A stretch of 64,000 nucleotides of DNA from Xanthobacteraceae bacterium (GTDB taxonomy: Bacteria; Pseudomonadota; Alphaproteobacteria; Rhizobiales; Xanthobacteraceae), in assembly GCA_030037885.1 (NCBI GenBank), contig JASHPU010000014.1, positions 15,986 through 79,985 of the forward strand, read 5' to 3'. The translations under genes and the position numbers were made by a program. Below the pieces are notes generated by a model. That model saw only the letters and a list, made by a program, of their open reading frames with translations. It was not told the origin of the DNA and ran no database searches. This document shows positions 9,343-24,502 of the stretch, piece after piece. Positions within the stretch are counted from its first letter, which is position 1. The number at the start of each line of letters is the position of its first letter.

Positions 9343-10218
9343 ATGAAGCGCGAAGAGATTTCCGAGAAGCTTGCCGCGGTCGGCTATATCGCCGATCGCG
9401 ACATCGCCACGGCGTTGTGGCTGATGGACTTCCTTAAACGACCGCTGCTGCTCGAAGGCGAAGCCGGTGTCGGCAAGACCGAAGTCGGCAAGGCGCTTGC
9501 CGCCGTCCACGGTACCGAACTGATCCGGCTGCAGTGTTACGAGGGCCTCGATCAGAACGCCGCGCTCTATGAGTGGAATTATCAGCGCCAGCTCCTTGCC
9601 ATAAAAACCCGCGAGGGCGCCAGCGCGAACGCCGACGCGATCGAGGAGCACATCTTCTCGGAGAAATACCTGCTGGAGCGACCGCTCTTGGCCGCCATCC
9701 GCCGCGCAACGCCGCCGGTGCTGCTGATCGATGAAGTTGACCGCGCCGACGAGGAGTTCGAGGCGTTTCTGCTCGAGCTGCTCTCCGACTTCCAGGTCAG
9801 CATTCCGGAGCTTGGCACGATCAAGGCCATCGCGGTGCCGCGCGTCGTGCTCACCTCCAACGGTACGCGCGAGCTGTCCGACGCGCTTCGCCGGCGCTGT
9901 CTCTATCACTATGTCGAGTTCCCCGATGTGGATCGCGAAGCAAAAATCATCCTGACCCGCACGCCCGGGATCGACGCCGCGCTCGCCTTGCAGATCGCGC
10001 GCATGGTGGGCGCCGTGCGCAAGGAGGACTTGCGCAAAGTGCCCGGCATTGCCGAGACCCTGGACTGGGCGGCGACGCTCGCCGGCCTCGAAGTGCACGA
10101 TCTGCGGCAGGAACCTGAAGCCGTCTACGAGACGATGGTTTGTTTGGTCAAGACGCATGAAGACCGCGCCCGCGTGACCCGTGAGGTGAGCGAGCGCCTG
10201 CTGGGGAAGGTGGCGTGA
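9343..10218 (+). CDS. coxD: MoxR-like AAA+ ATPase CoxD (CODH maturation)
   Basis: Walker A GEAGVGKT, Walker B LLIDEVDRA, MoxR-type sequence, and position after coxL. Confidence 0.88.
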   Translation: MKREEISEKLAAVGYIADRDIATALWLMDFLKRPLLLEGEAGVGKTEVGKALAAVHGTELIRLQCYEGLDQNAALYEWNYQRQLLAIKTREGASANADAIEEHIFSEKYLLERPLLAAIRRATPPVLLIDEVDRADEEFEAFLLELLSDFQVSIPELGTIKAIAVPRVVLTSNGTRELSDALRRRCLYHYVEFPDVDREAKIILTRTPGIDAALALQIARMVGAVRKEDLRKVPGIAETLDWAATLAGLEVHDLRQEPEAVYETMVCLVKTHEDRARVTREVSERLLGKVA

Positions 10219-11463
10219 ATGAACGTTGGCCGCCCCACCACCGCCCGTTCCCGCGCAAGCGGAGGCGCAGATCTGGATTCCCGCTTGCGCGGGAATGAGC
10301 GGAGTGAGCCGGCATGCCGCCGGCTCGCCGGTTTTGCCCGAACGCTCCGCGACAACGGCTTCCGGGCCGGCCTTGCCGAAACGCGCGATGCGATGCGCGT
10401 GCTCGCGTCACCGGCGGCGCTGCGCGCCACGTCGTTCAAGTCGGCCTTGCGCGCCCTGTTCTGCGCGACCCATTCCGATTGGGAACGCTTCGACGAAATT
10501 TTTGATGCGTTTTGGCAAGGCCGTGACATGCGTTCGCGTCAGGTCCTTTCCGGGACGCCGAGTGCAAGTCACGCGCCGGCGCGCCGGCTTGCCGAGGCGA
10601 ACGTGCCGGCGGAGGCGCTCGGGCTTCCGGATCGACCGGAGCGGCGCAGCGAGGGCGATGACGAAAGCTCCGCCGGCGGCCGCAGCCAACGCGAAGGAGC
10701 GTCGCGCGCCGAAAATATTGCCCGCACCGACCTGCGCCACGTCGTCGATCCTGATGAGATCGCTGCGACCCACGCGCTTGCGGCACGACTGGCGCGGACC
10801 ATGCGTGCCCGGCTCGTGCGCCGCGAGCAGGTGCGCCGCCGCGGCCGTCGCCTCGACCTGCGCCGTACCATTCATCGAAACGTCTCGCGTGGCGGCACGC
10901 TGCTCGATCTCGCTTGGCGGCGGCGCAAGATCAAACCGCTGCGCCTCGTCGTCCTGCTCGACGCCTCCGGTTCGATGAGTCCCTACACAGCCTTCTTTGT
11001 CCGCTTCCTGCACGGCGTGGTCGATGCCTTCCGCGAGGCTGAAGCCTTTGTGTTCCACACCCGCCTCGCGCACGTCTCGCCGTCGCTGCGTGACCGCGAC
11101 GTGACGCGCGCCGTGGAAAAGCTCGCCCTGATGGCGCAGGGCATCGGCGGCGGTACGCGCATCGGCGAGAGCCTGGCCACCTTCAACCGCTGGCACGCGC
11201 GGCGGGTCATCAATTCGCGCACCGCACTGATGATCGTCTCCGACGGTTATGATACCGGCGAACCGGGACAGCTTGGCGAGGAAATGCGCCGGCTGCGCCG
11301 GCGTTGCCGCAGGATTATCTGGCTCAATCCGCTCATCGGCTGGCGCGATTACTCGCCGCAGGCGCGCGGCATGCAGGTGGCACTGCCTTATGTCGATCTT
11401 TTCGCGCCGGCGCACAATCTCGAAAGCCTGGCCGCCCTCGAGCCTTATCTGGCGAGGATATGA
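10219..11463 (+). CDS. coxE: VWA-domain protein CoxE (CODH maturation)
   Basis: The ATG abuts the coxD stop. MIDAS motif LLDASGSMS and CoxE-type C-terminus. The N-terminal codons run through a REP-like hairpin, so the exact start is uncertain. Confidence 0.8.
   Translation: MNVGRPTTARSRASGGADLDSRLRGNERSEPACRRLAGFARTLRDNGFRAGLAETRDAMRVLASPAALRATSFKSALRALFCATHSDWERFDEIFDAFWQGRDMRSRQVLSGTPSASHAPARRLAEANVPAEALGLPDRPERRSEGDDESSAGGRSQREGASRAENIARTDLRHVVDPDEIAATHALAARLARTMRARLVRREQVRRRGRRLDLRRTIHRNVSRGGTLLDLAWRRRKIKPLRLVVLLDASGSMSPYTAFFVRFLHGVVDAFREAEAFVFHTRLAHVSPSLRDRDVTRAVEKLALMAQGIGGGTRIGESLATFNRWHARRVINSRTALMIVSDGYDTGEPGQLGEEMRRLRRRCRRIIWLNPLIGWRDYSPQARGMQVALPYVDLFAPAHNLESLAALEPYLARI
10277..10305. 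repeat. REP-like hairpin (ATTCCCGC-TTGC-GCGGGAAT + GAGCGGAGT), copy 1, inside the coxE 5' coding region
   Basis: 8-bp stem with a 4-nt loop. Shares the 17-nt identical core GCGGGAATGAGCGGAGT with the copy at 11541-11557. Confidence 0.8.
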
Positions 11464-11528
11464 CGTGCGTTTGCGACGGAGGGGTTTGCCGCGCCAGGCG
11501 CGGACCCGCTGCTTCGAGTCAGTCTGGA

Positions 11529-11557
11529 ATTTCCGCCTTCGCGGGAATGAGCGGAGT
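11529..11557. repeat. REP-like hairpin, copy 2, immediately upstream of the coxF start
   Basis: ATTTCCGC-CTTC-GCGGGAAT followed by GAGCGGAGT. Same 17-nt core as copy 1. Confidence 0.8.
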
Positions 11558-11559
11558 TC

Positions 11560-12405
11560 ATGAAAGAGTCTGTCATGGGCCGCGCCGACGACATCCTTGA
11601 CGACATTTCCTCGCGTAAGATCGCGGGCGAATCGTTCGCGCTCGCCACCGTCGTGCGCACCGTCGCGGCGACGGCCGCGAAGGCCGGCGCCAAGGCGGTC
11701 ATCCTGCCGGACGGCACAATTTCGCAAGGCTGGATCGGCGGCGGCTGCGCCCGTGCCGCAGTGCTCAAGGCGGCGCGCGATTGCCTTGCCGACGGCAAAT
11801 CGCGCCTCGTTTCGGTGCAGCCTGAAGAGGCGCTCGAAGGCCAAGGTCATAAGCCAGGCGACGAGCAAGGCGGTGTGCGCTTTGCCAAGAATATGTGCCC
11901 GAGCCAGGGTACCATGGACATATTCGTCGAGCCGGTCCTGCCGAGGCCGCAGGTCGTGGTTTGCGGCTCGAGTCCGGTGGCCGTCGCCGTCGCTGAACTC
12001 GCCGGCCGCTCGGGTTTTGCCGTCACGGTTTGCGCGCCGGCGCCCGAGCAAGCAGCGTTCGCGAAGGCGGATCGACGCATCGAGGGATTTGCGCTCCCGG
12101 TCGACGAAACCGCATCGCGCTATGTCGTCGTCTCCACCCAAGGGCGCGGGGACGAAGCTGCCTTGCTGGCGGTGCTCGCGGTCGATACCGACTATGTGGC
12201 TTTCGTCGGAAGTCGCAAAAAGGCAGCGGCCCTGAAGGCAGCGCTGGCGAAGCGCGGCGTTGCTGCGGAGCGCTTGGCGCGCCTCAAGGCGCCGGCCGGC
12301 CTCGATCTTGGCGCCATCACGCCCGATGAGATCGCCATCTCGATCCTCGCCGAGATTGTCGTCGTGCGCCGCGGCAAGCAAGCGCGCGACGCCGCCGAAC
12401 GGTAG
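11560..12405 (+). CDS. coxF: XdhC/CoxF-family molybdoenzyme maturation protein
   Basis: XdhC_CoxI-type N-terminal domain and Rossmann-like C-terminal domain (VVVCGSSPVAVAVAELA). Position after coxE. Confidence 0.8.
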   Translation: MKESVMGRADDILDDISSRKIAGESFALATVVRTVAATAAKAGAKAVILPDGTISQGWIGGGCARAAVLKAARDCLADGKSRLVSVQPEEALEGQGHKPGDEQGGVRFAKNMCPSQGTMDIFVEPVLPRPQVVVCGSSPVAVAVAELAGRSGFAVTVCAPAPEQAAFAKADRRIEGFALPVDETASRYVVVSTQGRGDEAALLAVLAVDTDYVAFVGSRKKAAALKAALAKRGVAAERLARLKAPAGLDLGAITPDEIAISILAEIVVVRRGKQARDAAER

Positions 12406-12693: not shown

Positions 12694-13779
12694 CTATTCG
12701 ACCAGGCCGAGATTATTCAGATCGCGCAGCGTTTTCGGCCAAACCCCCTCGCGTGCGGCCTTGATGAGAACGCGTGACCACGCGACCCACCCTTCCCAAG
12801 GAATCCGCTTGTCGCGCGGTGTCCCCCAATCGAGCAGCAGCCGCAAGCCGCGCTGCGCCTGCATCAGCGCCGCGCCAAATTCGCCACCAAGAAGCTTGAT
12901 CTGTGCAAGATACAGGTAAGCCTCGGGCAGCCACGGATTGAGCTCGACCGCTTCCAGCAGGATGTCGCCGGCTTCGGCGGCGGTCAGCGACGCCGTCTCG
13001 CCTGCGGCGACACGCCAGTAGCTGGCGGTCGCCGCAGCTTCATCTTCGGGCGTCAACAAGCCCGAACAATGGTCGAAAATCGGCGGTACTGTCCCCGCCG
13101 CTTGCGGCAAGTGCTGCGCCAAGCGGGACAGCAGGCTCATATTGGCCCCGCTGGGTTGCAATCGCCCGGGCCACAGCGCCTTTGACCAATGTTCGGCAGC
13201 TCCGCGCTGACGATCTGTGTGGGGATAGCCGCCCATCACATCGTCTTGCCAGCTAAACCACTGCTCGGCGAGATCGGCGATTGTAACGGCAAGGAAGGTG
13301 CGCACGGCACCGGGCGAGAGCTCCCATCGCCGGCCATTTTTTGGATCAGCGAGAATCATGCCCTCGCGAACCGGCGCCGAATCGCCGAGCATGCGGAGCA
13401 CGAATTCGGTGCGCGGCATCATGCAGAACGTGTAGACCAGCTCCTCCACCTCGCGGCCGACATTGTCGGAAAGCACCCCACGCTCGCTGCGCACGTCGAA
13501 AAGCGCCAGGTCAACATACTCGTTGGCGTAAACGCTGTGGAACAGTCCGCAAAAGCAGGTCGCGCCCGGCTCGCCCCAGAGCCGCAGAATGCGATATGTC
13601 CCGATCAGATGATCAAGGAACACGCCGTGCTTGTGCCAACTGATCGCTGCGTTCCGCCCGGCAAGAAGCCGGATCGCCGCGTCGAGTTGCGGACTGAGCG
13701 CGGCGTAGTCGCGCGCCAGCATAAGCCTCACTTCGGCATTGATAACCGGGGTTTCTACTCTGTCCGTCACCTGGTCCAT
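12694..13779 (-). CDS. Hypothetical protein with an HD-like N-terminal region and a TPR-like C-terminus; last gene of the FAAL/ACP operon
   Basis: His-rich helical signature HKHGVFLDHLIGTYRILRLWG...GLFHSVY. C-terminal helical repeats (EAYLYLAQIKLLGGEFGAALMQAQRGLRLL). AGGAGG lies 5 nt upstream of the ATG at 13779. No function recognised. Confidence 0.45.
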   Translation of the reverse strand: MDQVTDRVETPVINAEVRLMLARDYAALSPQLDAAIRLLAGRNAAISWHKHGVFLDHLIGTYRILRLWGEPGATCFCGLFHSVYANEYVDLALFDVRSERGVLSDNVGREVEELVYTFCMMPRTEFVLRMLGDSAPVREGMILADPKNGRRWELSPGAVRTFLAVTIADLAEQWFSWQDDVMGGYPHTDRQRGAAEHWSKALWPGRLQPSGANMSLLSRLAQHLPQAAGTVPPIFDHCSGLLTPEDEAAATASYWRVAAGETASLTAAEAGDILLEAVELNPWLPEAYLYLAQIKLLGGEFGAALMQAQRGLRLLLDWGTPRDKRIPWEGWVAWSRVLIKAAREGVWPKTLRDLNNLGLVE

Positions 13780-13813
13780 CATTTCCTCCTGCCCGTCGGA
13801 TATCGATTCGGCC

Positions 13814-14761
13814 TCACGGGTGAGCGCCCCAGAAAAACAAGATCGTAACGACGGAGAAGACGCTGAGCGCTGTGGAAAGCCACGTCATGCCCGACGTCTC
13901 AGCGACGAGCACATTGTATTGCTTGGCGACAACGAAGCAGCTGGTCGCCGGCGGCAGAGCGGAAAGCAACAGTGCAGCCGCTTTCGAGGTCGAATCGAGA
14001 TCGGTTACCCAGCGGATAACGCCCCAGGTCACCAACGGGTGAAGAATGAGCTTGATCAAGGACGGGCCGATCGCTCCCTCGACGCTCTCTCTCGCCGTTT
14101 GGCCGGCGACGAACATGCCGATCGTCATCAGCGAGCACGGAATAGCGGCGCTGCCGACCAGCTCAGTCAGCGACAGAATCGGCTTTGGCAGCGTCACGAA
14201 AGCGGAGCTGAGAACGCCAAAGACGACGCCAAGGATGAGCGGATTGCGCACCAGAGAGCGGACGGTCAGGAAAAGCGCCTTGCGCGAAGACGCCATGCCG
14301 TGGCGGGACGATTCGATAAGAGCGAAAGTCAAGCCGAAAAACACGGTGACGATGACGATCGTCGCGAGAATGGCGGGCAGCGCTTGCTCCTTGCCGAACG
14401 CAATGACAAGCAGCGGAACGCCCATAAAAGCGGTGCTGGAGCAGCTGCAGTTCATCCCACGCACGCTCGCTTCCGCGGTATTGCTGTGCCAGAGCAGCCG
14501 GCTCACCAGGAAGGCGACGCCATACATGATAGCGAGACTGAGAAACCAGGTTTCCAGAAATGTCGTCTGCCAAATCTGCGCGATCGGCGTGCGGGCAAGA
14601 AAGGAGAAAAGCAGAGCAGGGAACGACGCGTAGAAGACCAGTCGATTGAGTATGTCGACGCCTTCAGCGCCGATGAAGCCGGCGCGAACCAGCAGGTAAC
14701 CGACGATCACGCAACCGAACACCGGTACGGACGTTGCGATAACCGCACTGAACATCATCAT
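13814..14761 (-). CDS. AEC (auxin efflux carrier) family transporter
   Basis: About 10 TM segments. N-terminus MFSAVIATSVPVFGCVIVGYLLVRAGF is typical of the AEC/membrane transport family. GGAGG lies just upstream of the ATG triplet run. Confidence 0.75.
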   Translation of the reverse strand: MMMFSAVIATSVPVFGCVIVGYLLVRAGFIGAEGVDILNRLVFYASFPALLFSFLARTPIAQIWQTTFLETWFLSLAIMYGVAFLVSRLLWHSNTAEASVRGMNCSCSSTAFMGVPLLVIAFGKEQALPAILATIVIVTVFFGLTFALIESSRHGMASSRKALFLTVRSLVRNPLILGVVFGVLSSAFVTLPKPILSLTELVGSAAIPCSLMTIGMFVAGQTARESVEGAIGPSLIKLILHPLVTWGVIRWVTDLDSTSKAAALLLSALPPATSCFVVAKQYNVLVAETSGMTWLSTALSVFSVVTILFFWGAHP

Positions 14762-14982
14762 GCCTCCGCGTCTTTGGCCGAGGAACCGCCTTCGAGGCCC
14801 GCCGGCCAACCGTCACGAGTTCGCCATCCGGCGGTAAGCGGTCAATCCGTCGCACGCGGAGGGACGCAGCCCCCGTTCGCCGTCGACGACCGCCCGTGTC
14901 CCGGCAAGACGCCGCAGATCGACGGCGACCCGTCGTCTGTCGAATCGTACATCCTTGCGCCGCAAAGGTGCATTCGCGAATG

Positions 14983-15492
14983 TCATTCAAGATGCTCCTT
15001 CTGCGCCGGACGCGCGCGCGGCAGGCTCGTCACGGACGCTTGCGCCATCGCCACGAGTCTCTCGCGCCCGCGCGACACGGCTATGATTTCTGCGCGGCAG
15101 ACCGCGTTCCGCACGTTCGCGATCGTCGCGTGGCCGCGGCCAATCAACTGTTCGCCGACCGCCGGCGCGAGAAGATTGATTTTGTATTCGGCGGTCACCA
15201 CGTCACCGAGCAAGGAGGCCGCCGACCAGGCGCAAGCGCTGTCGGCGGCAAAGCCGATGACTGCGCCATGAATAAAACCATGATGCTGGCGTAGCTGCGG
15301 CGTCACCGGCACAGTGAGCTCCACCTCGCCCTTGCCATAGCGTGTGAGTTGCACACCAAGACCGACGGCAAACGCGGTGCGGGCGATGAGCGAGGCAATC
15401 TCCTCCTGGGTCAGGCCAACGGCCGCCTGTTCATCAGGACCGGAAGCTTGCTTCGTCCAACCATCAGCCGTCGATCCGATTGCTGTCGCCAC
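14983..15492 (-). CDS. PaaI-type hotdog-fold thioesterase
   Basis: HGFIHGAVIGFAADSA core typical of PaaI/YdiI thioesterases. GTG start with an upstream GGGAGG. Confidence 0.7.
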   Translation of the reverse strand: MATAIGSTADGWTKQASGPDEQAAVGLTQEEIASLIARTAFAVGLGVQLTRYGKGEVELTVPVTPQLRQHHGFIHGAVIGFAADSACAWSAASLLGDVVTAEYKINLLAPAVGEQLIGRGHATIANVRNAVCRAEIIAVSRGRERLVAMAQASVTSLPRARPAQKEHLE

Positions 15493-15523: not shown

Positions 15524-17323
15524 CTACGGTACCGCGCGGCTTTCCGGCGCCGTCTCCGTCGTCAAGGCAAATTCCGGGCTCCGGGTCGAACACGCGTCCT
15601 GATCGAGCCGTTCCAGCGTGCCGGCGAGATAGCGATGGCACGTTTCTGCGCGACGAATCTTTCCGCTCGTCGTCTTCGGGATCGTACCAATGCGGATTGG
15701 CACCACTTCGCGGACGTGGAGATCGAATTCGGCGACGATGGCAGCGCGGATGGCGGCTGTCAACGCGGCGATGTCCACCGTCCGGCTCCAACTCCGCCCG
15801 ATCTCGGCGATGACAACGAGAGCGGCATCGACACCCTCGCCGACGCACACTGCTGCCGAACAGGTCGGGCGCACGGCCGGATGCGCACTTTCTGCGTGCC
15901 TTTCGATGTCCTGCGGATAGAAATTGCGGCCACGCAGGATCAGCATGTCCTTGCGACGGCCTGCGACGAACAACGCGCCGCCATCGAGAAAGCCGAGATC
16001 GCCGGTGCGCAGGTAATATCCGGGCGATCCGTCCGCGAGTTGTGCGCGGAAGGTCGCTGCGCTGGCTTCTGCCTTATCCCAATAGCCGCGCGCGATGTTC
16101 GGGCCAGCGACCCAGATTTCGCCGAGCTCGCGGCTCGCCCTCGGCATGCAATCGTCGGGACCGACGATCCGTATCTCCTCGCCGGTCACGGCGTGGCCGC
16201 AGGCGACGAGTTCTTGCACATCGGCGGAATTTGCCAATTCGATGCGGTCGCCCTCGAGCGCGCGTCGATCGAGCGCCAGAAAAGACGATGCGGCGCCCGG
16301 CACGCCGCCCGAGACGAAGACGGTCGCTTCGGCGAGCCCATAACACGGGTAAGTGGCGCTCGCCCGAAAGCCGTAAGGCGCAAAGGCGCTGGAAAACCGG
16401 CGGACCGTATCCGCGCGGACCGGCTCGGCCGCGTTGAATGCTATGCGCCAGCAGCTCAAATCCATACCCGAGGCCTTCTCCTCCGAAAATTGCCGAACGC
16501 ACAGGTCGTAGGCGAAATCGGGCGCTCCGGCGACGTCCGCCCGATAGTCGGAAATCACTTTGAGCCAGAGCAGCGGGCGTTGGGCGAACTGCGCCGGGCG
16601 CATGAAAACGCAAAGGCCGCCGGCATAAATGGCGTGCAGCGCTATCAGAATTAATCCCATGTCGTGAAATAACGGAATCCAACTGACGAAACGAGAGTGC
16701 GGCCCGGTGTCCCATCGATCGACAATCATCTGCAAATTGGTGCGGAGATTGCCGTGGCTTACCATGACGCCCTTAGGCGTCGAGGTGGATCCCGACGTGT
16801 ATTGAAGGAACGCGAGCTCGGCGTCATTGACCGGCGGACCGCTGCGGCAGACCGCGTCCAACTTCGCCGTCACGCCGCCGTCAATCGCCAGACAGGCGGC
16901 CTGCTCGGCTTCGGGAAATGACGATATGAGCGCATCGAACGCCTCAACCGCCACCCGGTCGGTGACGATGCAACGCGGCCGGCTGTCCTGATAAATGGAG
17001 CGCGTGGCCTCCCGCAGCTTGTTGCGCCTCGGCAGTATCACGGGGACAGCGATGCGGCCGCTGCAAAGGCACGCAAAGAAGCCGATCAGGAAGTCGAGCG
17101 GAGATTCCACGGCAATGAGAACACGGTCGCCGCGCGCGGTCTGCGTCGCCAGCTTGCCGGCAAGACCAAGCGAACGCTCGTGGAGCTGACGATAGGTGAG
17201 AGCGCCTGCTTCGGCGCCGCGATCGTCAACCAGAACGACCGCCGTTTTCTCCGGGTCACGTCCGGCCCATCCCGCGAGCACGTCGGGCAACGGGATGCCT
17301 TTTGGGTAAGGCACATCGATCAT
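15524..17323 (-). CDS. Fatty acyl-AMP ligase (FAAL)
   Basis: FLQYTSGSTSTPKGVMVSHGNL and IPKTTSGKIRR adenylation motifs with FAAL-like (FadD32-type) context. The ATG overlaps the upstream thioesterase stop (ATGA). Confidence 0.85.
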   Translation of the reverse strand: MIDVPYPKGIPLPDVLAGWAGRDPEKTAVVLVDDRGAEAGALTYRQLHERSLGLAGKLATQTARGDRVLIAVESPLDFLIGFFACLCSGRIAVPVILPRRNKLREATRSIYQDSRPRCIVTDRVAVEAFDALISSFPEAEQAACLAIDGGVTAKLDAVCRSGPPVNDAELAFLQYTSGSTSTPKGVMVSHGNLRTNLQMIVDRWDTGPHSRFVSWIPLFHDMGLILIALHAIYAGGLCVFMRPAQFAQRPLLWLKVISDYRADVAGAPDFAYDLCVRQFSEEKASGMDLSCWRIAFNAAEPVRADTVRRFSSAFAPYGFRASATYPCYGLAEATVFVSGGVPGAASSFLALDRRALEGDRIELANSADVQELVACGHAVTGEEIRIVGPDDCMPRASRELGEIWVAGPNIARGYWDKAEASAATFRAQLADGSPGYYLRTGDLGFLDGGALFVAGRRKDMLILRGRNFYPQDIERHAESAHPAVRPTCSAAVCVGEGVDAALVVIAEIGRSWSRTVDIAALTAAIRAAIVAEFDLHVREVVPIRIGTIPKTTSGKIRRAETCHRYLAGTLERLDQDACSTRSPEFALTTETAPESRAVP

Positions 17324-18120
17324 CCGTATTGCGCCTCTCGCCCTTCGCCATGATCGGAAAGATACGCCGCGGCCTTGGCGACGATTGTTTCGACCAGGCG
17401 CTGCTGCTCGGCGACGTCGAAAAAGTGACGACCCGCCAGCGGCACGAAGCAGAAGTCGCACGCGGTTTCGGATCCCCAGGCCATGACTTCTTCCGCTTTC
17501 ACCACCGGATCATCGACGCCGTGAAAGGCGACGATTGGACAATCCAGCGGCGCTTCATCGACGTAACGGTAGCGGTCGGAAACCGCGAGATCGGCCCGCA
17601 TAAGGGGAAAAACGCTATTGCGCCAGCGCGGATTATCGAAGACATCGACCATCGGCCCGCCCATCTCGCGCATGACGGCTGTCAGCGCGTCGTCAGGCAG
17701 CGACCAGAGTGGGGTGTGAGACAGCGCCAACGATGGCGCGCGCCGCCCCGAAACGCACAGTGCGATCGGCCTATGAGAGCCGGCACGTCGCATGCCGCGC
17801 GCAAGATCGAACGCCAGAATGGCGCCCAGGCTGTGACCGTAGAGGATGACCGGGTAATTGCCGAGCTGCCATAGCGCGACGAGATATCTCGGTACAAACT
17901 CCTCGGCCTGCTCGATTGGAGCAATCGCGGCGAGATTGTCGCGTCCCGGCAACTGAGCCCGCACCAACACCAGCCAATCCGGCAACCATTTCGACCAGCC
18001 ATTGAACGAAAGCACGCCGCCCCCGGCGTGCGGAAAACACACCAAGAGGCAGCGGGTCTCACTATGGGACGGCGCTCGACGTAGCCAACTTGGCGGCGAG
18101 TTGGTTGGGCCGGCGTCCAT
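17320..18120 (-). CDS. Type II thioesterase (alpha/beta hydrolase)
   Basis: CFPHAGGG and GHSLGA nucleophile-elbow motifs typical of TEII/GrsT-like enzymes. Start chosen at the ATG at 18120, 14 nt after the P450 stop. Confidence 0.8.
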   Translation of the reverse strand: MDAGPTNSPPSWLRRAPSHSETRCLLVCFPHAGGGVLSFNGWSKWLPDWLVLVRAQLPGRDNLAAIAPIEQAEEFVPRYLVALWQLGNYPVILYGHSLGAILAFDLARGMRRAGSHRPIALCVSGRRAPSLALSHTPLWSLPDDALTAVMREMGGPMVDVFDNPRWRNSVFPLMRADLAVSDRYRYVDEAPLDCPIVAFHGVDDPVVKAEEVMAWGSETACDFCFVPLAGRHFFDVAEQQRLVETIVAKAAAYLSDHGEGREAQYG

Positions 18121-18134
18121 CCGGTCGATCCACG

Positions 18135-19412
18135 CTATGCGGCTGCGCCAAACCGGATCGGCAGCTTCTCGAGGCTGCGCAGAATCCGACTTTGCGTCTG
18201 CCAACGAGGCGTTGCGCCAGCGAGCGTCACGTCGGTGCGATCGACCAGAAGGCGCTCGATGACGACCTCGGCGATCGTCGCGGCGAGCGCGCCCCCCAGG
18301 CAATTGCGCATGCCATAACCAAAGGCCAGGTGCGTGTCGCTGTTGCGCCGGCTGATGTCAAAGCGCTGCGGGTCGGCAAATTGCGCCGGATCCCGATTGG
18401 CGGCGCCGAGACAAAGCAGGATCTGCTCGCCCTTGCGAATGGTGATGCCATCAAACTTGGAATCCGCGATCGCGACGCGCTTGGTCTGCTGCAGCGGCGA
18501 TTCGTAGCGCATGACCTCGTCAACCGCTTGGCGCAGCAAACTGCGGTCCCGGCGCAAGAGCGCAAGCTGGTCCGGATGTGTGAGCAGCAGGTGGACGCCA
18601 TTGCCGATCAGGGCCTTCGTGGTCTCGGTTCCCGCCACGAAGGTCATGATCGACAACAACTGAATCTCGTTACGATCTAATCTGTCGTCGCCCCACCGGG
18701 CGCTTGCGAATTTCTCTATGAGGTTGCTGCCGCCGTGGAAGGGACAGCCGTCCACGTGCTCGTGCATGACCCTGAGCAGGTTGCTCATCGAGGCGTGCGC
18801 TCGTTCATAATCGGACCGCGTCATAAGACCCGGATCAAGGAGCTGTCGCGCATCGTTGATCCAGCGCGCGAAATCGGGATGCACATCCACATCGAGATCC
18901 AGTCGTCCGGCCATGACGCGCAACGGCACGGGTTCGGCGATCGCCCGAACGACATCGGCGGTTCCGTCCCGCGCCGCCCGGTCGATTGCGGCATCGACGA
19001 TAGCCTTGATCAGGCTTCGTTCGGCGTCGATCTGGCCCCGGGTAAAGCCGCTATTGGTCAGCCGCCGCAACCGCGCATGATCGGGATTCTCGGTGAAGAC
19101 GATCGCCTTGCGGATGAAGTACTGGATCGGATCCGGCTCAGGAATTCCAAAGTCGGGCTTGTTCTTCCATATGACGTCCTCGAACAGCCGGGAGCTGTAA
19201 GTGCGACTGGACAGCACCCTGACCACATCGGCGAAGGAGGTGAAGATCCAGCTCCCGAGCATGCGGGAACGTGGGTCCTCGCGCTGCAGCCGCTCATAGA
19301 CCGGATAGGGATCCTGGTGGAATTCCTCGCTTAGAGGATTGAAGCGGAAGGGTTTGCCTCGCGCTTCGTTCGACCGTGTCGCGCCGGCCGGCCGCGCATC
19401 GGGCTCCAGCAT
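18135..19412 (-). CDS. Cytochrome P450 monooxygenase
   Basis: I-helix AGTETT, EVMR (ExxR), and haem loop FGYGMRNCLG. ATG at 19412 is preceded by GGGGAG. Confidence 0.9.
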   Translation of the reverse strand: MLEPDARPAGATRSNEARGKPFRFNPLSEEFHQDPYPVYERLQREDPRSRMLGSWIFTSFADVVRVLSSRTYSSRLFEDVIWKNKPDFGIPEPDPIQYFIRKAIVFTENPDHARLRRLTNSGFTRGQIDAERSLIKAIVDAAIDRAARDGTADVVRAIAEPVPLRVMAGRLDLDVDVHPDFARWINDARQLLDPGLMTRSDYERAHASMSNLLRVMHEHVDGCPFHGGSNLIEKFASARWGDDRLDRNEIQLLSIMTFVAGTETTKALIGNGVHLLLTHPDQLALLRRDRSLLRQAVDEVMRYESPLQQTKRVAIADSKFDGITIRKGEQILLCLGAANRDPAQFADPQRFDISRRNSDTHLAFGYGMRNCLGGALAATIAEVVIERLLVDRTDVTLAGATPRWQTQSRILRSLEKLPIRFGAAA

Positions 19413-19443
19413 CTCTGGTACTCCCCGGTGGGCCGGACCTGCG

Positions 19444-20382
19444 CTAGGCCAGCGACATGCTGCCGTCGGTCTTGACGGGCTCGCCTGTCGCGCGCCAATC
19501 GTTGGTAATCGGCCGCAGGCAGAAACGCAGCAGATTGATCTTGCCCATGCGGAAACCAACGGAACCGAGCTTGTAGAAGCGCTCGAAACGCTGCACCTGC
19601 TCTTCGCCGGCCAGGCTGACGGCCTCCGCGCGCCGGCTGCGCAAGTTCTTCAGCCACTCGTCATAACTTCTGGCATAGTCGAAGCGATCGTTGCGCACGG
19701 CCACGACTTCGAACAGGCCGTCCACGGCGTTCACGACATCGGCAAGGTAGGGAAGATCCGATTCGGGGTAGATTTCGGTGATCATGAACTCGTTTGCTTC
19801 GTGCCGCTTCATGTTGCCGAAGGCGATCGTCTGCAGCGAGAGCCGACCTCGCGGCGACAGCCAGCGATGGCAGCGCTCGAAGAAATCACGATAGACAAGC
19901 ATCTTCTCCGCCTGGGTCTCGTCAGGCTTGGCAAAGTGCTCGAAGGCGCCAATCGAAATAATGGAGTCGAACTTCTCCTGCGGCTCGTAGCTCGCCCAGT
20001 TCTCGACCCGGACCTCCACCTTGTCGAGACCAAGTCCGTTGAGATAATCGGCTTGCGCCTGACTGAGGGTAAGGCCGACCGCCCGACGGACATTCGGCAA
20101 ACGATTGAGCCGCGTGAGGATGGTCCCCCAGCCGCAGCCGACTTCAAGCACCGAGGCGGCGTCCTGCACCTTCGCGCTGTTCAAGTGCCAATTGATCTTG
20201 CGCAACTGGGCGGTCTCGAGATCGTCATTGGGATTCGCGAATAGCGCCGCCGAATAAGTGTAGGACGGTCCGAGCATCAGCCGCCAGAATTCGTTGCCGA
20301 TATCGTAGTGATGCTTGATGCCTTCCGGCGAGCCGCCGTATTTGTGCTCTTCGCGGCGTCGCAGTGCAGTGACTTTGCTCAT
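19444..20382 (-). CDS. Cyclopropane-fatty-acyl-phospholipid/mycolic acid synthase-family SAM methyltransferase
   Basis: HYDIGNEFWRLML and the SAM motif VLEVGCGWGT. AGGAGG lies 6 nt upstream of the ATG at 20382. Confidence 0.85.
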   Translation of the reverse strand: MSKVTALRRREEHKYGGSPEGIKHHYDIGNEFWRLMLGPSYTYSAALFANPNDDLETAQLRKINWHLNSAKVQDAASVLEVGCGWGTILTRLNRLPNVRRAVGLTLSQAQADYLNGLGLDKVEVRVENWASYEPQEKFDSIISIGAFEHFAKPDETQAEKMLVYRDFFERCHRWLSPRGRLSLQTIAFGNMKRHEANEFMITEIYPESDLPYLADVVNAVDGLFEVVAVRNDRFDYARSYDEWLKNLRSRRAEAVSLAGEEQVQRFERFYKLGSVGFRMGKINLLRFCLRPITNDWRATGEPVKTDGSMSLA

Positions 20383-20405
20383 CACTTTCCTCCTATTTGC
20401 GAAAC

Positions 20406-20693
20406 TCAGGCGACGTTCGCACGCGGCTGCTCGCTGGCGCTGGCAGTGACATATCGCGCAAGCTCGTTGATCGTCGGATATTCAAAGAGCAAAGACGGCT
20501 CGAGATCGAGGCCGCTCCACTCCTCAAGGTCGAGGATGAGCGCCACCGCCATCACCGAGTCGAGACCGAGCCGATCAAAATCGGCGTCGGCATCGATTTT
20601 ACCGGGGTCGGTGTGCAGCGTTTTGGCCAAAAACAGCAGGCTGTGTTGACGAACCGAATCCACTGTCAGAACCGGCGAACGACTGGCACTCAT
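20406..20693 (-). CDS. Free-standing acyl carrier protein
   Basis: 95 aa with the phosphopantetheine attachment motif GLDSVMAV. Good RBS (GAGGAGAGGG). Confidence 0.85.
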   Translation of the reverse strand: MSASRSPVLTVDSVRQHSLLFLAKTLHTDPGKIDADADFDRLGLDSVMAVALILDLEEWSGLDLEPSLLFEYPTINELARYVTASASEQPRANVA

Positions 20694-20785: not shown

Positions 20786-21742
20786 TCACGCCGCGCGTTC
20801 AGCCAGGCGTTGGGCGGGAACCGTTTTGACGTCCCAAACAAGCCCCAATGCCTGAAGCAGCCGGATCAGGTAGTACCCCGGGTCGACGCGATACCAGGTG
20901 AGAGCAAATGAAGCAGAATGCGGGAAAGCATGATGGTTGTGATGCCAGCCCTCGCCCCAGGAGAACAGCGCAAGAAGCCCGCTATTGCCGCTGTGGTCGC
21001 GGCACTTGTAGGGCTTGGAGCCCCAGATGTGCAGGAACGAGTTGAGACTCCACATCGCGTTCGAGACCACAAACATGCGCACGGCGCCGCCCCACAGGAA
21101 ACCGTTGAGAGCGCCGATCCACGTCCCGGTGATAAGCGCGGCGGCGGCGGTTGGGATTACAAGCCCCAACACGATCCACGTCATGTAATGACGGCTGATC
21201 CAGAGCAACCTGTAGTCGGACATGAGTTCGGGAGTATAGTAATTCACGTTGGGATACTCATGACCCATCATCCAGGTAAAATGCGCATGGACGAAGCCGC
21301 GAAGGCGAGCCGATCGCGTTTCGCCGTGGAGATTGGGCGAATGCATATCGCCCGGCTTGTCGGAGCATTCGTGATGCCGGCGATGCATCGCAGTCCAGGA
21401 GATCAGCGAGCCCAGTCCCGCCATCGACCCGGCAATCGCCAGAGCAGCGCGGACAGCAGGATGAGCCTTGAAGCTGGCATGGGCAAAAAGACGGTGATAG
21501 CCCAAAGTCTGACCGACGCTCGTGATCGACCACATGATGAGGAAGATGGCGAAGACCGGCCAGCCGAGCGGGTACCAGAACAGCAACGCAATCGCTACTG
21601 CGGTGCCGATCGGCGGCAGGACGGTGAAGAGAAGAAAATGCCGTATCTGGATGCGGCGAAGAAAGTCGCTCTGGATCGCCTTCTTGCCTCGCCGCCCGTC
21701 GGGCGTCTCGTAGTACCGACTGTCTATCGATTCTAGGTACAT
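20786..21742 (-). CDS. Membrane-bound acyl desaturase (stearoyl-CoA/Delta9-like, three His boxes)
   Basis: His boxes HRLFAH, HRRHH and HNHHAF with intervening TM segments. Confidence 0.85.
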   Translation of the reverse strand: MYLESIDSRYYETPDGRRGKKAIQSDFLRRIQIRHFLLFTVLPPIGTAVAIALLFWYPLGWPVFAIFLIMWSITSVGQTLGYHRLFAHASFKAHPAVRAALAIAGSMAGLGSLISWTAMHRRHHECSDKPGDMHSPNLHGETRSARLRGFVHAHFTWMMGHEYPNVNYYTPELMSDYRLLWISRHYMTWIVLGLVIPTAAAALITGTWIGALNGFLWGGAVRMFVVSNAMWSLNSFLHIWGSKPYKCRDHSGNSGLLALFSWGEGWHHNHHAFPHSASFALTWYRVDPGYYLIRLLQALGLVWDVKTVPAQRLAERAA

Positions 21743-21794: not shown

Positions 21795-22856
21795 TCACTC
21801 CGCCGCACGGGACACTGCCGACGCCTCCTCCGACCAACGCTTGACGAGCGCGACATGAATTGCGCGTTCTCCGGCGAAGGCGTTGCGACCATGACTGAAC
21901 AAGACGTTGTCCAGCAGCAGCACGTCGCCACGGACCCAGCGATGCGGCACGGCAAAGCGGCGGTGCAGATCGTAGAGATACAGCGCATCCTCCCGGCTGA
22001 CCTCGGTCCCATCGCCATGGAAGACGCGGTCAACGAGGTGCGGTGCCTCGGTAAGCGCGCGCTCAATCGCCTGCGCCTCAGCCACACGTCCATCGTCGCG
22101 CGCCCATTGCAGGGTACAGTGGGGCGAGAAAATGTGGACCTGGTTGAACCAGACTTCTTCGCCGGTTATGGGGTGACGCGTCGTAACCGGTCGAACCTCC
22201 TGCCAAAGCTGCACGGAATCGTCGTCGAGCCAGCTCACGCGCCACTTGCGCGCATCGGCTATGCGCTGCACTTCGGAACGCTCTTTGACGCCGAATGCCT
22301 CGGGCCACGACTTCGCCACGCCGGGTTTTTTATGCACGCTCTCCGGGCTCGGCAACGTTCGCCGCAATTGAACGCCGCCCTTGCTGATGAAACGCTCGCG
22401 CACCGCCGGATCCAACGCGCGCGTCAGGCGACGCATATCGCCCGTCGTCGTCTCGCCGCCTTGTGTCGTCGGCGCCGCGCCGAAGAAAGCGATCTTGGCC
22501 GGAAAATCGTCCGTGTAAGACATTTCCTGATGGAGCGGGATGGAAAACGTCGGCGGCAGCTCCGTCGCCGTCATGACCTTGCCGTGGACGGCCCGGCGCG
22601 GCGACGTGCCGCCGATATAATCCATCAGATCGGGCGTCATGGCCTCCATGACAACCGCGAAATCGGCAGCCGTCGCGACCTTGTTGAAGCCACGGATACA
22701 AACGCCACCGCCCTCGAGGAGGGCGCTATCGAGAAGGCGCCGATCCTTCTTCAACCAACTGACGACCTCCGCGACCGAAGCATCCTGCCCGCTCCTGGCC
22801 TGCCAGCAAACCGGTGCGCCCGCCTCGCCCGCTCTCGTCTCCTCAATCTGGATCAT
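21795..22856 (-). CDS. TauD/TfdA-family Fe(II)/2-oxoglutarate dioxygenase (CAS/SyrP-like HxE subtype)
   Basis: Facial-triad candidates LHQEMSY (H-x-E) and LFSHGRNAFAGER. The ATG overlaps the DUF962 stop (ATGA). Confidence 0.8.
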   Translation of the reverse strand: MIQIEETRAGEAGAPVCWQARSGQDASVAEVVSWLKKDRRLLDSALLEGGGVCIRGFNKVATAADFAVVMEAMTPDLMDYIGGTSPRRAVHGKVMTATELPPTFSIPLHQEMSYTDDFPAKIAFFGAAPTTQGGETTTGDMRRLTRALDPAVRERFISKGGVQLRRTLPSPESVHKKPGVAKSWPEAFGVKERSEVQRIADARKWRVSWLDDDSVQLWQEVRPVTTRHPITGEEVWFNQVHIFSPHCTLQWARDDGRVAEAQAIERALTEAPHLVDRVFHGDGTEVSREDALYLYDLHRRFAVPHRWVRGDVLLLDNVLFSHGRNAFAGERAIHVALVKRWSEEASAVSRAAE

Positions 22857-23362
22857 CGTACGCCTCCATCGTGACCTGCCTGGCTGGCGACAAGCGGGCC
22901 AACCACAGTTTGCGGTGCGACCCAGTCACCCGTGTAAAGCGCGATGAAGTAAATTGGACCAACCAAAGATTGAATGCCGTTGCGCGTGAAATTCGGAGCG
23001 TTCTTTTCCCACACCAGATGTCCGAGCAGCTGAATGATCCAGCCGGCGATGCCGGCGAGAACGACAAGCCATACGGGCGTCACCCAACTGACGGCGAGGC
23101 TAGCAATAAGGGCGACAAGGGTGATGGAGCCGAGCTTGAGATCGGTTTTGAGATACCAGATGCCGACAGCGACGAGCGCGACATCCGCCACGGTCAACAT
23201 GCCGTGCGGCAAACCGCCGACCGGGACGAGGTGCAGCCAATCGAGCATCCCTACCGCGTTAAAGAAGATCAGCGGGATTGCGATTTTGTGGGTTAGTTGA
23301 TTGATGGGATTTCGGTGGAAGGTGTCGTATTCCGCGAACAGGACTTTCAGCCTCTCGTTCAT
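22853..23362 (-). CDS. DUF962 / Mpo1-like membrane protein (putative 2-hydroxy-fatty-acid dioxygenase family); first gene of the operon
   Basis: YDTFHRNPINQLTHKIAIP and GHLVWEKNAP His motifs characteristic of DUF962, with 4 TM-like segments. Start chosen at the ATG at 23362. Confidence 0.7.
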   Translation of the reverse strand: MNERLKVLFAEYDTFHRNPINQLTHKIAIPLIFFNAVGMLDWLHLVPVGGLPHGMLTVADVALVAVGIWYLKTDLKLGSITLVALIASLAVSWVTPVWLVVLAGIAGWIIQLLGHLVWEKNAPNFTRNGIQSLVGPIYFIALYTGDWVAPQTVVGPLVASQAGHDGGVR

Positions 23363-23536: not shown

Positions 23537-23548
23537 GATAATACCATA
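23515..23548. promoter_or_regulatory. Perfect 15-bp inverted repeat TATGGTATTATCAGC-AATG-GCTGATAATACCATA (candidate operator)
   Basis: Read directly from the sequence. It lies in an A/T-rich stretch (about 37% G+C over 23521-23590 by hand count), about 150 bp upstream of the first operon gene. Confidence 0.5.
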
Positions 23549-23639
23549 CATACTACTTAATGTCACATACCACCTGTTAGCACATACCACTTGGCGTCGA
23601 GTGAGTCAATCGGCCGAAGATCGATCAGACCTGATATGC

Positions 23640-23790
23640 GGTTGCATCAGGAAGAACGCACGTCTGTTGCGAAGACGACGTTTGATTGGACAGCGGGTCA
23701 CACTCTCCAGCCGGAGTATTCCGCACTTCTATCTGACGCTTGACTGCAATATCGACCGACTGCTGGCCATTCGTGAGGGGGACCGGCCCG
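23640..23790 (+). pseudogene. Relic of a 2-oxoacid dehydrogenase E2 (dihydrolipoamide acyltransferase) catalytic domain
   Basis: The translation contains ...IRKNAR...SIPHFYLTLDCNIDRLLAIREG, matching the conserved E2 segment (R-K-x-I-A-R...Q-T-I-P-H-F-Y-L-x-x-D-x-x-x-D-x-L-L-x-L-R). There are no lipoyl or remaining catalytic regions, and the frame ends after about 79 codons. Confidence 0.6.
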
Positions 23791-23813
23791 GGCCGGGCCG
23801 CCACTACCGCGGC

Positions 23814-24281
23814 TCAGCCTTCGCTGTGACCGCGGGGTAGACTCGTACTTTCCGGCAAGGCGCCACTGGCGCGGGAGAACACCGCATTGGCGCGTACGAT
23901 CCGCTCATCCTTGACCATCAGAAAAGCGTTGGCGAATGCCAGGCGCGATCCGACTTTATGGACATCCACGCGGGCTTCGACCCAGTCGCCGACTTTTGCG
24001 GCTCCGGCAAAATCGGCGCACAGGCTTGCCGTGGTCAGCGCGGCTGGCGGCCGCTGGCTGAAGGCCGCACGGTAGCCGAGCGCGATGTCAATGAGGGTGA
24101 GGAGCAGGCCGCCGTGAGCACTACCACGCGCATTCGCGTGTTTGGGCAGCACGCGCACGCCAACCACAAAGCTGCCATCGGGCTCCTTGCGGTAGTAGAA
24201 TGGGCCGACCGTCTCCAAAAATGGGCTTGAGCGGAACAGGGGTTCGAAACCGGCAGGCGGAGCGGGGTCTTGATCAGCCAT
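23814..24281 (-). CDS. PaaI-family hotdog thioesterase
   Basis: SAHGGLLLTLIDIALG core. GGAGG upstream of the ATG at 24281. Confidence 0.7.
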   Translation of the reverse strand: MADQDPAPPAGFEPLFRSSPFLETVGPFYYRKEPDGSFVVGVRVLPKHANARGSAHGGLLLTLIDIALGYRAAFSQRPPAALTTASLCADFAGAAKVGDWVEARVDVHKVGSRLAFANAFLMVKDERIVRANAVFSRASGALPESTSLPRGHSEG

Positions 24282-24502
24282 GGCGAAGGCCTCCTTCTGG
24301 CCGCCGGTACCTTGTCGCAGGTTTGGATCTGCCACAACCGTCGGCCGCGATGGGTAGAACACCCGCCGGCATTTTCAATCGCTCAGCCGGGTTGAGACGC
24401 TGCATTCCGGCGAGGCGGTCAGCCGCTGCTTCCGAGCAGCCTAAGGGTGCGGATGTCGCCCGCCGTGACGTTCGCAGCGGACGTGCTCGGCGCCATGACG
24501 TC

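Follow-up and report, generated by a model that had tools for sequence, protein, structure and literature searches.

In a 64,000-nucleotide stretch of a Xanthobacteraceae genome (assembly GCA_030037885.1, contig JASHPU010000014.1; the whole stretch is called the window hereafter), two overlapping genes encode a DUF962 (Mpo1-like) membrane protein and a TauD/TfdA-family Fe(II)/2-oxoglutarate (2OG) dioxygenase, referred to below as DUF962 and TauD. They are a genuine, conserved, co-inherited and translationally coupled gene pair. We propose, with a probability of about 0.5, that TauD would 2-hydroxylate a carboxylic acid and that DUF962 would remove one carbon (C1) from the product. The functional claims for all proteins in this work rest on gene context.

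A conserved and coupled gene pair

The stop codon of the DUF962 gene (TGA, 22855..22853) and the start codon of the TauD gene (ATG, 22856..22854) have the four letters ATGA in common. A GGAGG motif (22867..22863) lies inside the DUF962 coding sequence, 6 nt 5' of the TauD ATG, and the DUF962 open reading frame (ORF) itself has an ATG start with GGGAG 7 nt 5' of it. In Pfam, the DUF962 protein matches PF06127 (Mpo1-like; 51.3 bits against a cut-off of 24, residues 6-141) and the TauD protein matches PF02668 (98.8 bits against a cut-off of 27). No NCBIfam model matches either protein, or the DUF6817 protein that is encoded further along in the window. The coordinates and the overlap given in an earlier interpretation of this DNA (the sequence-only reading) are correct by direct reading, and the motifs that it quoted (FHRNPINQLTHK and GHLVWEKNAP for DUF962, LHQEMSY and LFSHGR for TauD) are all present in the translations.

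DUF962 lies directly upstream of a TauD orthologue in loci L011/L013/L077, L012, L023, L026, L073-L076, L078, L080, L114 and L125. The pair recurs in at least eight non-redundant loci from metagenome-assembled genomes (MAGs) or metagenomes, mostly with a 4-nt overlap, which is kept in the window and in seven loci (L011, L023, L026, L073, L076, L114 and L125). Identity to the window proteins is 42-71% for TauD and 49-74% for DUF962 across these loci, and the trees of both proteins contain the groups (window, L011) and (L073, L075). A conserved co-occurrence of the two families, on which the sequence-only reading had made its proposal depend, was thus found, as the pair recurs across loci at 42-74% identity. 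A word-indexed search returned only 16 close DUF962 homologues. In the close DUF962 clade (at least 50% identity, P0121-P0132), all five members examined (P0125, P0128, P0129 and P0131, and P0124 through a contig equal in length to those of P0009 and P0144) adjoin TauD and head the same cassette, and several more members lie on contigs equal in length to those of TauD hits. Among DUF962 genes that stand free, the nearest (41-49% identity) are not accompanied by TauD.

The closest relative of the window locus, from a Stellaceae MAG (L011:10001-12221; also L013 and L077), carries two tandem 353-aa TauD paralogues after DUF962. Within the region seen, its cassette lacks genes for a hotdog protein, a transporter and DUF6817.

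The hydroxylase and its partners

A full HMMER scan of 1.84 billion representatives recovered 666 members of the DUF962 family, the best match being only 44% identical to the window protein. An alignment of 66 members (24-90% identity) shows six invariant residues (H16, H25, H115, E119, P123 and P136), of which the three histidines are putative Fe ligands. Work by Mori et al. in 2020 reportedly found three conserved histidines to be essential in yeast Mpo1. The AlphaFold2 model of DUF962 is all-helical (predicted local distance difference test score, pLDDT, 93.7), and a Foldseek search of this model against the PDB gave nothing at E<=1e-3. Yeast Mpo1 is a one-step 2-hydroxy fatty acid dioxygenase (PMC10398889).

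For the TauD protein, phmmer against all PDB chains (E<=1e-3) matched only At3g21360 from Arabidopsis (1y0z, 7.5e-25), 9yut (4.7e-22) and, weakly, the TauD/TfdA chain 7tcl (8.8e-4); none of the matches at this threshold was a clavaminate synthase, AsnO, VioC or another hydroxylase of the carrier or amino-acid type. The 9yut chain is the sulfoquinovose dioxygenase SqoD, in which the sulfonate is held by loop 84-93 together with the main chain of the residue that follows the Glu, while Arg92 coordinates 2OG (PMC12951627). Across 25 orthologues, H109, E111 and H322 of TauD are invariant, as are R324 and the loop G82-G83-T-S85-P86-R87 (GGTSPR). In the alignments, the three metal-site residues coincide with the facial triad His115/Glu117/His308 in the SqoD structure and also with the triad of At3g21360. 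The conserved GGTSPR loop is aligned with the anion-binding loop of SqoD, and R87 with its Arg92. R324 stands in the motif H322-G-R324, and a 2OG-binding role is assigned here by alignment only. The sequence-only reading had assigned TauD to the CAS/SyrP/AsnO-like subtype. This is unsupported, as the H-x-E form of the triad also occurs in SqoD and the solved matches are those listed above. Nor does anything point to the carrier-tethered substrate that it had suggested, the solved relatives being free-substrate or uncharacterised enzymes.

The window holds two candidate C1-removing partners of TauD, namely DUF962 and DUF6817. In a published cascade, the Fe/2OG enzyme SmaO hydroxylates next to a carboxylate, after which SmaX, an atypical HD-domain iron enzyme, cleaves the C-C bond of the resulting alpha-hydroxycarboxylate; the only HHpred relatives of SmaX are DUF6817 and HD_4 (PMC12186529). 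A 2OG hydroxylase gene is linked to DUF6817 in the same operon both in the window and in L073, and DUF6817 partners a TauD orthologue as its direct neighbour in at least ten loci. The AlphaFold2 model of the window DUF6817 protein has a pLDDT of 92.2. Its residues 21-254 superpose on the HD domains of Rel/SAH/Mesh1 with Z 9.6-10.4 over 154-173 residues (rmsd 3.5-5.2), values that are below the safe level for helical folds in a wide VIA search. A Foldseek search of the same model matched only the C-terminal TPR and gave no HD-like match. Six residues of DUF6817 are invariant (H50, H58, H82, S83, N87 and D170), with H82-S83 at the position of the HD dyad. DUF6817 also occurs fused to 2OG oxygenase domains, either Asp/Asn beta-hydroxylase or 2OG-FeII_Oxy_3 (P0211-P0213). 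An apparent 715-aa TauD-DUF6817 fusion in L025 was ruled out as an artefact of ORF extension, since the two are separate genes there (9896-10933 and 10976-12043).

Full-length DUF6817 homologues (33-41% identity) are found in plants (Salvia, Erythranthe, Phalaenopsis) and in a diatom (P0191-P0210). Together with the plant homologue of the TauD branch, At3g21360, the plant DUF6817 proteins give a tentative hint that the same two-step chemistry might exist in plants.

In several groups, a TauD orthologue (45-53% identity) is part of the same cassette without DUF962. It lies between an AEC-family transporter gene and DUF6817 in Burkholderia ubonensis, Paraburkholderia sediminicola, Variovorax paradoxus, Bordetella genomosp. 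13, a betaproteobacterial MAG and four Eremiobacterota MAGs, and in seven Stappia genomes and Thalassospira marina the genes next after it are a class II aldolase-like one and an unknown one of 303 aa. Mixed cassettes occur as well, combining DUF962 with DUF6817 (window, L073) or with the aldolase-like gene (L078). DUF962 is absent from most TauD cassettes and is therefore not needed for the core product; it is a lineage-specific add-on, one of several interchangeable partners of TauD. The exclusive partnership of the two proteins implied by the sequence-only reading does not hold, as most TauD cassettes have DUF6817 or the aldolase-like gene instead.

Class II aldolase-like sequences were also seen elsewhere. 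A 614-aa Mucilaginibacter protein (P0118) fuses such a domain to a TauD domain, and Aldolase_II genes adjoin TauD orthologues in Verticiella and Nostoc and a stand-alone DUF6817 gene in Siccirubricoccus (L040:9208, L014:382 and L132:8844-9605).

The impression that TauD is present in every cassette is circular when TauD is the bait, and it was ruled out by a census with the cassette desaturase as bait. Among 121 Stappiaceae genomes, nine have the cassette desaturase. A TauD orthologue lies about 6.7 kb away in eight of these, TauD alone occurs in none, and the ninth desaturase-positive genome has a reduced cassette without thioesterase and TauD. Among 251 Burkholderiaceae genomes, five have the desaturase at >=50% identity and two of the five have TauD; the others contain only desaturase, acyl carrier protein (ACP), methyltransferase and fatty acyl-AMP ligase (FAAL), or only desaturase, ACP and FAAL. 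TauD is missing from these reduced cassettes, and the hydroxylase and its partner therefore constitute an added module on a desaturase-ACP-(methyltransferase)-FAAL core. A wider family of reduced cassettes without TauD, in which a CMAS (cyclopropane mycolic acid synthase) gene and a P450 gene are optional between ACP and FAAL, was noted in Stappiaceae and Burkholderiaceae (L136, L137, L138 and L140).

In other loci, TauD orthologues accompany dehydrogenases or oxidases of 2-hydroxy acids. In a Burkholderiaceae genome (L141; G379:C39, 13448-17254), genes for a GNAT protein, a D-isomer-specific 2-hydroxyacid dehydrogenase and a class I/II aminotransferase surround the TauD orthologue on its own strand, and this string is suggestive of a path that leads from a fatty acid to an N-acylated 2-amino fatty acid. 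The string sits between the two halves of a desaturase/ACP/CMAS/thioesterase/FAAL cluster. Outside the lipid cassettes, TauD orthologues (40-48% identity) adjoin a GlcD-like FAD-linked oxidase in L031, L041, L088 and L095. The further companions are an aromatic amino acid lyase (L031, L041, L095), an aminotransferase and a nonribosomal peptide synthetase (NRPS; L031), an HpaB hydroxylase (L095) and a chorismatase (L088). GlcD/GlcE/GlcF-like genes also flank five DUF962-type cassettes, upstream in three and downstream in two (Table 1), and none is found in the window.

Two of these loci were seen over a longer range. In a Blastocatellia MAG (L031:22-15249), the gene for a 3302-aa NRPS is directly followed by those for the TauD orthologue, the aromatic amino acid lyase, the aminotransferase and the FAD-linked oxidase, possibly a building-block pathway for a 2-oxo/2-hydroxy aromatic acid or a beta-amino acid. 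In Micromonospora phytophila (L041:5556-15222), the TauD orthologue, the GlcD-like oxidase, a FemAB-like protein and the aromatic amino acid lyase adjoin a trio of MetRS-like, lysine N-monooxygenase and DAO genes, which we take to resemble hydrazinoacetate-forming cassettes.

Proposed reaction and its alternatives

The Mpo1, SmaX-type, D-2-hydroxyacid dehydrogenase and GlcD-type oxidase families share 2-hydroxy acids as substrates. TfdA and AtsK hydroxylate a carbon adjoining an anionic group. SqoD and the enzyme after which the TauD family is named do likewise (PMC12951627). Because the partner families, the aldolase-like one aside, use 2-hydroxy acids and these four hydroxylases act beside an anionic group, it is simplest to suppose that the TauD clade 2-hydroxylates free carboxylic acids. 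Indeed, gene context in many unrelated loci points to a 2-hydroxy acid as the product of the TauD orthologue. With Fe(II), 2OG and O2, the window enzyme would convert R-CH2-COOH into R-CH(OH)-COOH on the free acid. The membrane-bound Mpo1-like protein would then use Fe(II) and O2 to turn this 2-hydroxy acid into R-COOH and CO2, as in yeast Mpo1, at an iron centre presumably held by three histidines with the invariant Glu nearby. The substrate of TauD would probably be a fatty acid entering the desaturase/ACP/methyltransferase/P450 line or a modified one leaving it. The DUF6817 protein, which in the window is present beside the other candidate partner DUF962, could be redundant, could carry out a second shortening round or could act on a different substrate. 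The gene anatomy, the conservation, the ligand residues and the pattern of co-occurrence are shown; from them we infer the regiochemistry, the substrate and the place of the module before or after the ACP steps. What stands of the sequence-only reading is its core idea, acyl hydroxylation followed by oxidative C1 removal, which is backed by the 2-hydroxy-acid partner families; its choice of subfamily, its carrier-tethered substrate and its single partner do not stand.

Tentatively, the TauD clade may be a general bacterial carboxylic acid 2-hydroxylase that has been repeatedly combined with non-homologous enzymes consuming 2-hydroxy acids (Mpo1-like, DUF6817/HD-like, dehydrogenase or GlcD-like oxidase plus aminotransferase, and aldolase-like), so that an acid one carbon shorter or a 2-oxo/2-amino acid results. 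On this tentative extension, the Mpo1-like protein of the window would be the first bacterial member with an assigned reaction, and the operon would be an undescribed alpha-oxidation module in an undescribed family of FAAL/ACP clusters.

Several observations weigh against the proposed hydroxylation and shortening by TauD and DUF962. DUF962 is missing from the majority of TauD-bearing cassettes, and in five such genomes only a 29-34% identical DUF962 elsewhere, or none, was found. On the TauD tree, the loci with DUF962 fall into three groups within a single region of poor resolution and imply two to three changes; few independent events therefore lie behind the association. Most loci were fetched with TauD as bait. 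Identity between TauD and the closest solved proteins is only about 25-30%, and one of these has a sulfosugar as its substrate. In Acetobacteraceae, DUF6817 orthologues (44% identity) are found with no TauD gene. It may be the window DUF6817 that removes C1, a different task being left to DUF962, and the substrate may be ACP-bound.

These last two points lead to the main alternatives. TauD and DUF6817 could form the working cascade, of the SmaO/SmaX type, and DUF962 would then do something else, for instance act on another hydroxy intermediate from the P450 or methyltransferase, or clear 2-hydroxy by-products from the membrane. The two genes are direct neighbours in Burkholderiales and Eremiobacterota (with a gap of 25 nt in L010), often with an AEC transporter gene before them; the fusions of DUF6817 to 2OG oxygenase domains fit such a cascade, the tail of the window operon keeps DUF6817 and the transporter, and there is a published precedent for a 2OG hydroxylase working with a DUF6817-like HD enzyme (PMC12186529). 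Yet it is DUF962 to which the window TauD is translationally coupled, and DUF6817 is found 8 kb further downstream. In the Stellaceae relative (L011/L013) and in L074, the region seen contains DUF962 but no DUF6817, so that the TauD product must go elsewhere in these loci, and DUF6817 orthologues exist without TauD. We consider such a division of labour unlikely. It is distinctly unlikely that TauD hydroxylates an ACP-tethered chain, in SyrP/AsnO style or at a remote carbon, with DUF962 unrelated in substrate and coupled for co-expression only. Some TauD-family members do act on carrier-bound amino acids, and the same operon has an ACP, a FAAL and a thioesterase. A CFAS-family enzyme acts on ACP-bound chains in the FAAL/desaturase/ACP cluster of fischerazole (PMC13548996). 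No solved carrier-dependent TauD-family hydroxylase was matched at E<=1e-3, however, and the anion-binding loop of SqoD is conserved in the aligned TauD. Moreover, the TauD orthologues of L088, L095 and L041 stand beside 2-hydroxy-acid enzymes without cassette desaturase, CMAS or FAAL, and the downstream partners (Mpo1, SmaX-type, dehydrogenases) need a free carboxylate.

The chemistry that we propose could also run in another order, with TauD and DUF962 as a feeder that trims an even-chain fatty acid by one carbon before FAAL loading and so provides an odd-chain starter. The pair comprises the first genes of the operon, a free acid is, from general family knowledge, the form of substrate expected for both enzymes, and FAAL accepts free acids as well. 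Gene order is no evidence for reaction order, though, and the other cassette type has TauD at its far end, after the hotdog and transporter genes; we regard a feeder role as improbable. Finally, stand-alone DUF962 genes are common in bacteria, as the 666 representatives and the free-standing genes illustrate, and the adjacency might be fortuitous, with DUF962 and TauD functionally unrelated. This is highly improbable. Adjacency and the 4-nt overlap persist in several lineages in which both proteins have diverged to about 42-50% identity, a TauD context was the only one seen for this DUF962 clade, and locus identities of 42-74% are not near-clonal.

Operon setting and known systems

DUF962 and TauD head 11 co-directional minus-strand genes (Table 1). 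A promoter-like site with a match to the sigma-70 consensus lies about 175 nt 5' of the first of these, and the number of such sites in the region is not above that in shuffles. No TauD orthologue was found at E<=1e-40 in 24 same-genus and 16 same-order genomes, and the nearest relative with the operon is the Stellaceae/Allostellaceae MAG. The operon is therefore an accessory trait, probably acquired horizontally.

Table 1. Features of the DUF962-TauD operon in the window, and GlcDEF-like genes at related loci
Feature	Position	Strand	Basis
DUF962 / Mpo1-like membrane protein, 169 aa, operon gene 1	22853..23362	-	PF06127
TauD/TfdA-family Fe(II)/2-oxoglutarate dioxygenase, 353 aa, At3g21360/SqoD-like	21795..22856	-	PF02668, PDB matches
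ATGA overlap, DUF962 stop and TauD start	22853..22856	-	sequence reading
Membrane fatty-acid desaturase	20786..21742	-	PF00487
Acyl carrier protein (ACP)	20406..20693	-	PF00550, 62.7 bits
CFA/mycolic-acid cyclopropane synthase family S-adenosylmethionine methyltransferase	19444..20385	-	PF02353, 180 bits
Cytochrome P450, CYP107-like, start codon not fixed	18135..19418	-	PF00067; PDB: EryF, PikC, BioI
Type II thioesterase, start codon not fixed	17320..18120	-	PF00975
Fatty acyl-AMP ligase (FAAL)	15524..17323	-	PF00501 and PF23024; NCBIfam FAAL subfamilies
Hotdog (PaaI-type) thioesterase-fold protein	14983..15492	-	PF03061; best solved relative 3e1e
AEC-family membrane transporter	13814..14809	-	PF03547, 106 bits
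DUF6817 protein, 362 aa, HD-like N-terminal domain and C-terminal TPR	12694..13782	-	PF20680, 83.7 bits
Promoter-like site (sigma-70-like), GTGACA-17-TATTAT with TG	23538..23566	-	consensus match only
GlcDEF-like genes	L073:5439-9329; L075:1528-5364; L076:3272-7186; L011:19048-21062; L074:9863-11232		

Two other interpretations of the operon were dropped. The P450 as a CYP152 alpha-hydroxylase supplying Mpo1 was ruled out, the protein being CYP107-like with EryF, PikC and BioI as its best PDB matches. An isonitrile-lipopeptide cluster, with FAAL, ACP, hotdog and TauD as the counterparts of ScoB-E / Rv0097-0100, was ruled out since neither TauD nor the hotdog protein has a ScoE/Rv0098 match in the PDB; Rv0098/ScoD is absent from the listed PDB matches of the hotdog protein. 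The triad of ScoE is H-x-D, that of the window TauD H-x-E.

Beyond the first gene, a short plus-strand ORF (23601-23840) resembles the beginning of the catalytic domain of 2-oxoacid dehydrogenase E2 (PF00198; 22.8 bits, marginally short of the cut-off of 23), which would fit a gene remnant at the edge of the operon. Another hotdog (4HBT) gene on the minus strand (23814-24362), upstream of the promoter-like site, has no counterpart in the related cassette loci and probably lies outside the operon.

Many bacteria have proteins of the Mpo1/DUF962 family, but to our knowledge a function is established for the yeast enzyme alone. A literature search, with subscription journals mostly outside its reach, found no description of a bacterial DUF962 function, of the DUF962-TauD pair or of the cassette. 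The operon offers bacterial DUF962 a concrete candidate source of substrate, the product of the overlapping TauD gene, and the swapping of partners provides a functional handle on the At3g21360-like TauD branch, DUF6817 and DUF962. It suggests a portable route by which fatty acids are trimmed by one carbon or turned into 2-oxo/2-amino acids, of interest for lipid natural products and biocatalysis. The cassette is present in culturable Burkholderia, Variovorax, Stappia and Thalassospira and appears to be without a described product.

Compared with known systems, the window protein and yeast Mpo1 (YGL010W, Fe2+-dependent) share family PF06127, the form of a small helical membrane protein and three invariant His plus Glu, and the reaction proposed here would likewise lead from a 2-hydroxy acid to the Cn-1 acid in one step. 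The yeast enzyme, however, serves sphingoid-base catabolism with 2-hydroxy acids made by another route, has no paired 2OG hydroxylase and is not part of a FAAL/ACP operon. At3g21360 and SqoD are the nearest solved relatives of TauD, with which they have the H-x-E...H triad, a GG(A/T)(A/S)PR loop and a similar overall length in common. Identity is about 25-30% (by eye), substrate and genomic setting differ, and the sulfonate-binding Gln120 of SqoD is an invariant Tyr in the window TauD clade.

As to the logic of hydroxylation and subsequent cleavage, the remark in the sequence-only reading that it had not seen such a pairing described in a bacterial biosynthetic operon may stand for the pair and the cassette, which were not found in the literature searched, but not for the logic, which has a bacterial precedent in SmaO/SmaX (PMC12186529). 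The window operon resembles that system in holding a DUF6817 protein with an H-S variant of the HD dyad and a predicted fold that may resemble HD_4-type domains. It differs in that its hydroxylase belongs to the TauD family (At3g21360/SqoD branch), the gene coupled to this hydroxylase is Mpo1-like with a fold unlike HD, and the substrate would presumably be a lipid-like acid rather than a peptide Asp or a phosphonate. PhnY/PhnZ and TmpA/TmpB are C-P analogues of the same logic. In peroxisomal alpha-oxidation, the 2OG hydroxylase PhyH acts first and C1 is then lost through the 2-hydroxyacyl-CoA lyase HACL1/2 (PMC10398889). This too is 2OG-dependent 2-hydroxylation followed by C1 loss, but it proceeds on CoA esters, with a thiamine diphosphate-dependent lyase that gives formyl-CoA and an aldehyde, and with unrelated families.

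The cluster core, for its part, is that of JamABC/TtuABC and fischerazole FshA/D/E/F, and the order desaturase-ACP-CFAS-like equals FshD-FshE-FshF. In fischerazole, the CFAS-like FshF acts on an ACP-tethered unsaturated acyl chain (PMC13548996). These clusters lack the TauD/Mpo1-like/DUF6817 module and feed polyketide synthase/NRPS lines, whereas the window operon ends with a free-standing thioesterase and a transporter. Taken together, the window system would differ from all of these in the At3g21360/SqoD-like branch of its hydroxylase, the coupled second enzyme of the Mpo1 family, the FAAL/ACP operon setting and the apparent swapping of non-homologous second enzymes.

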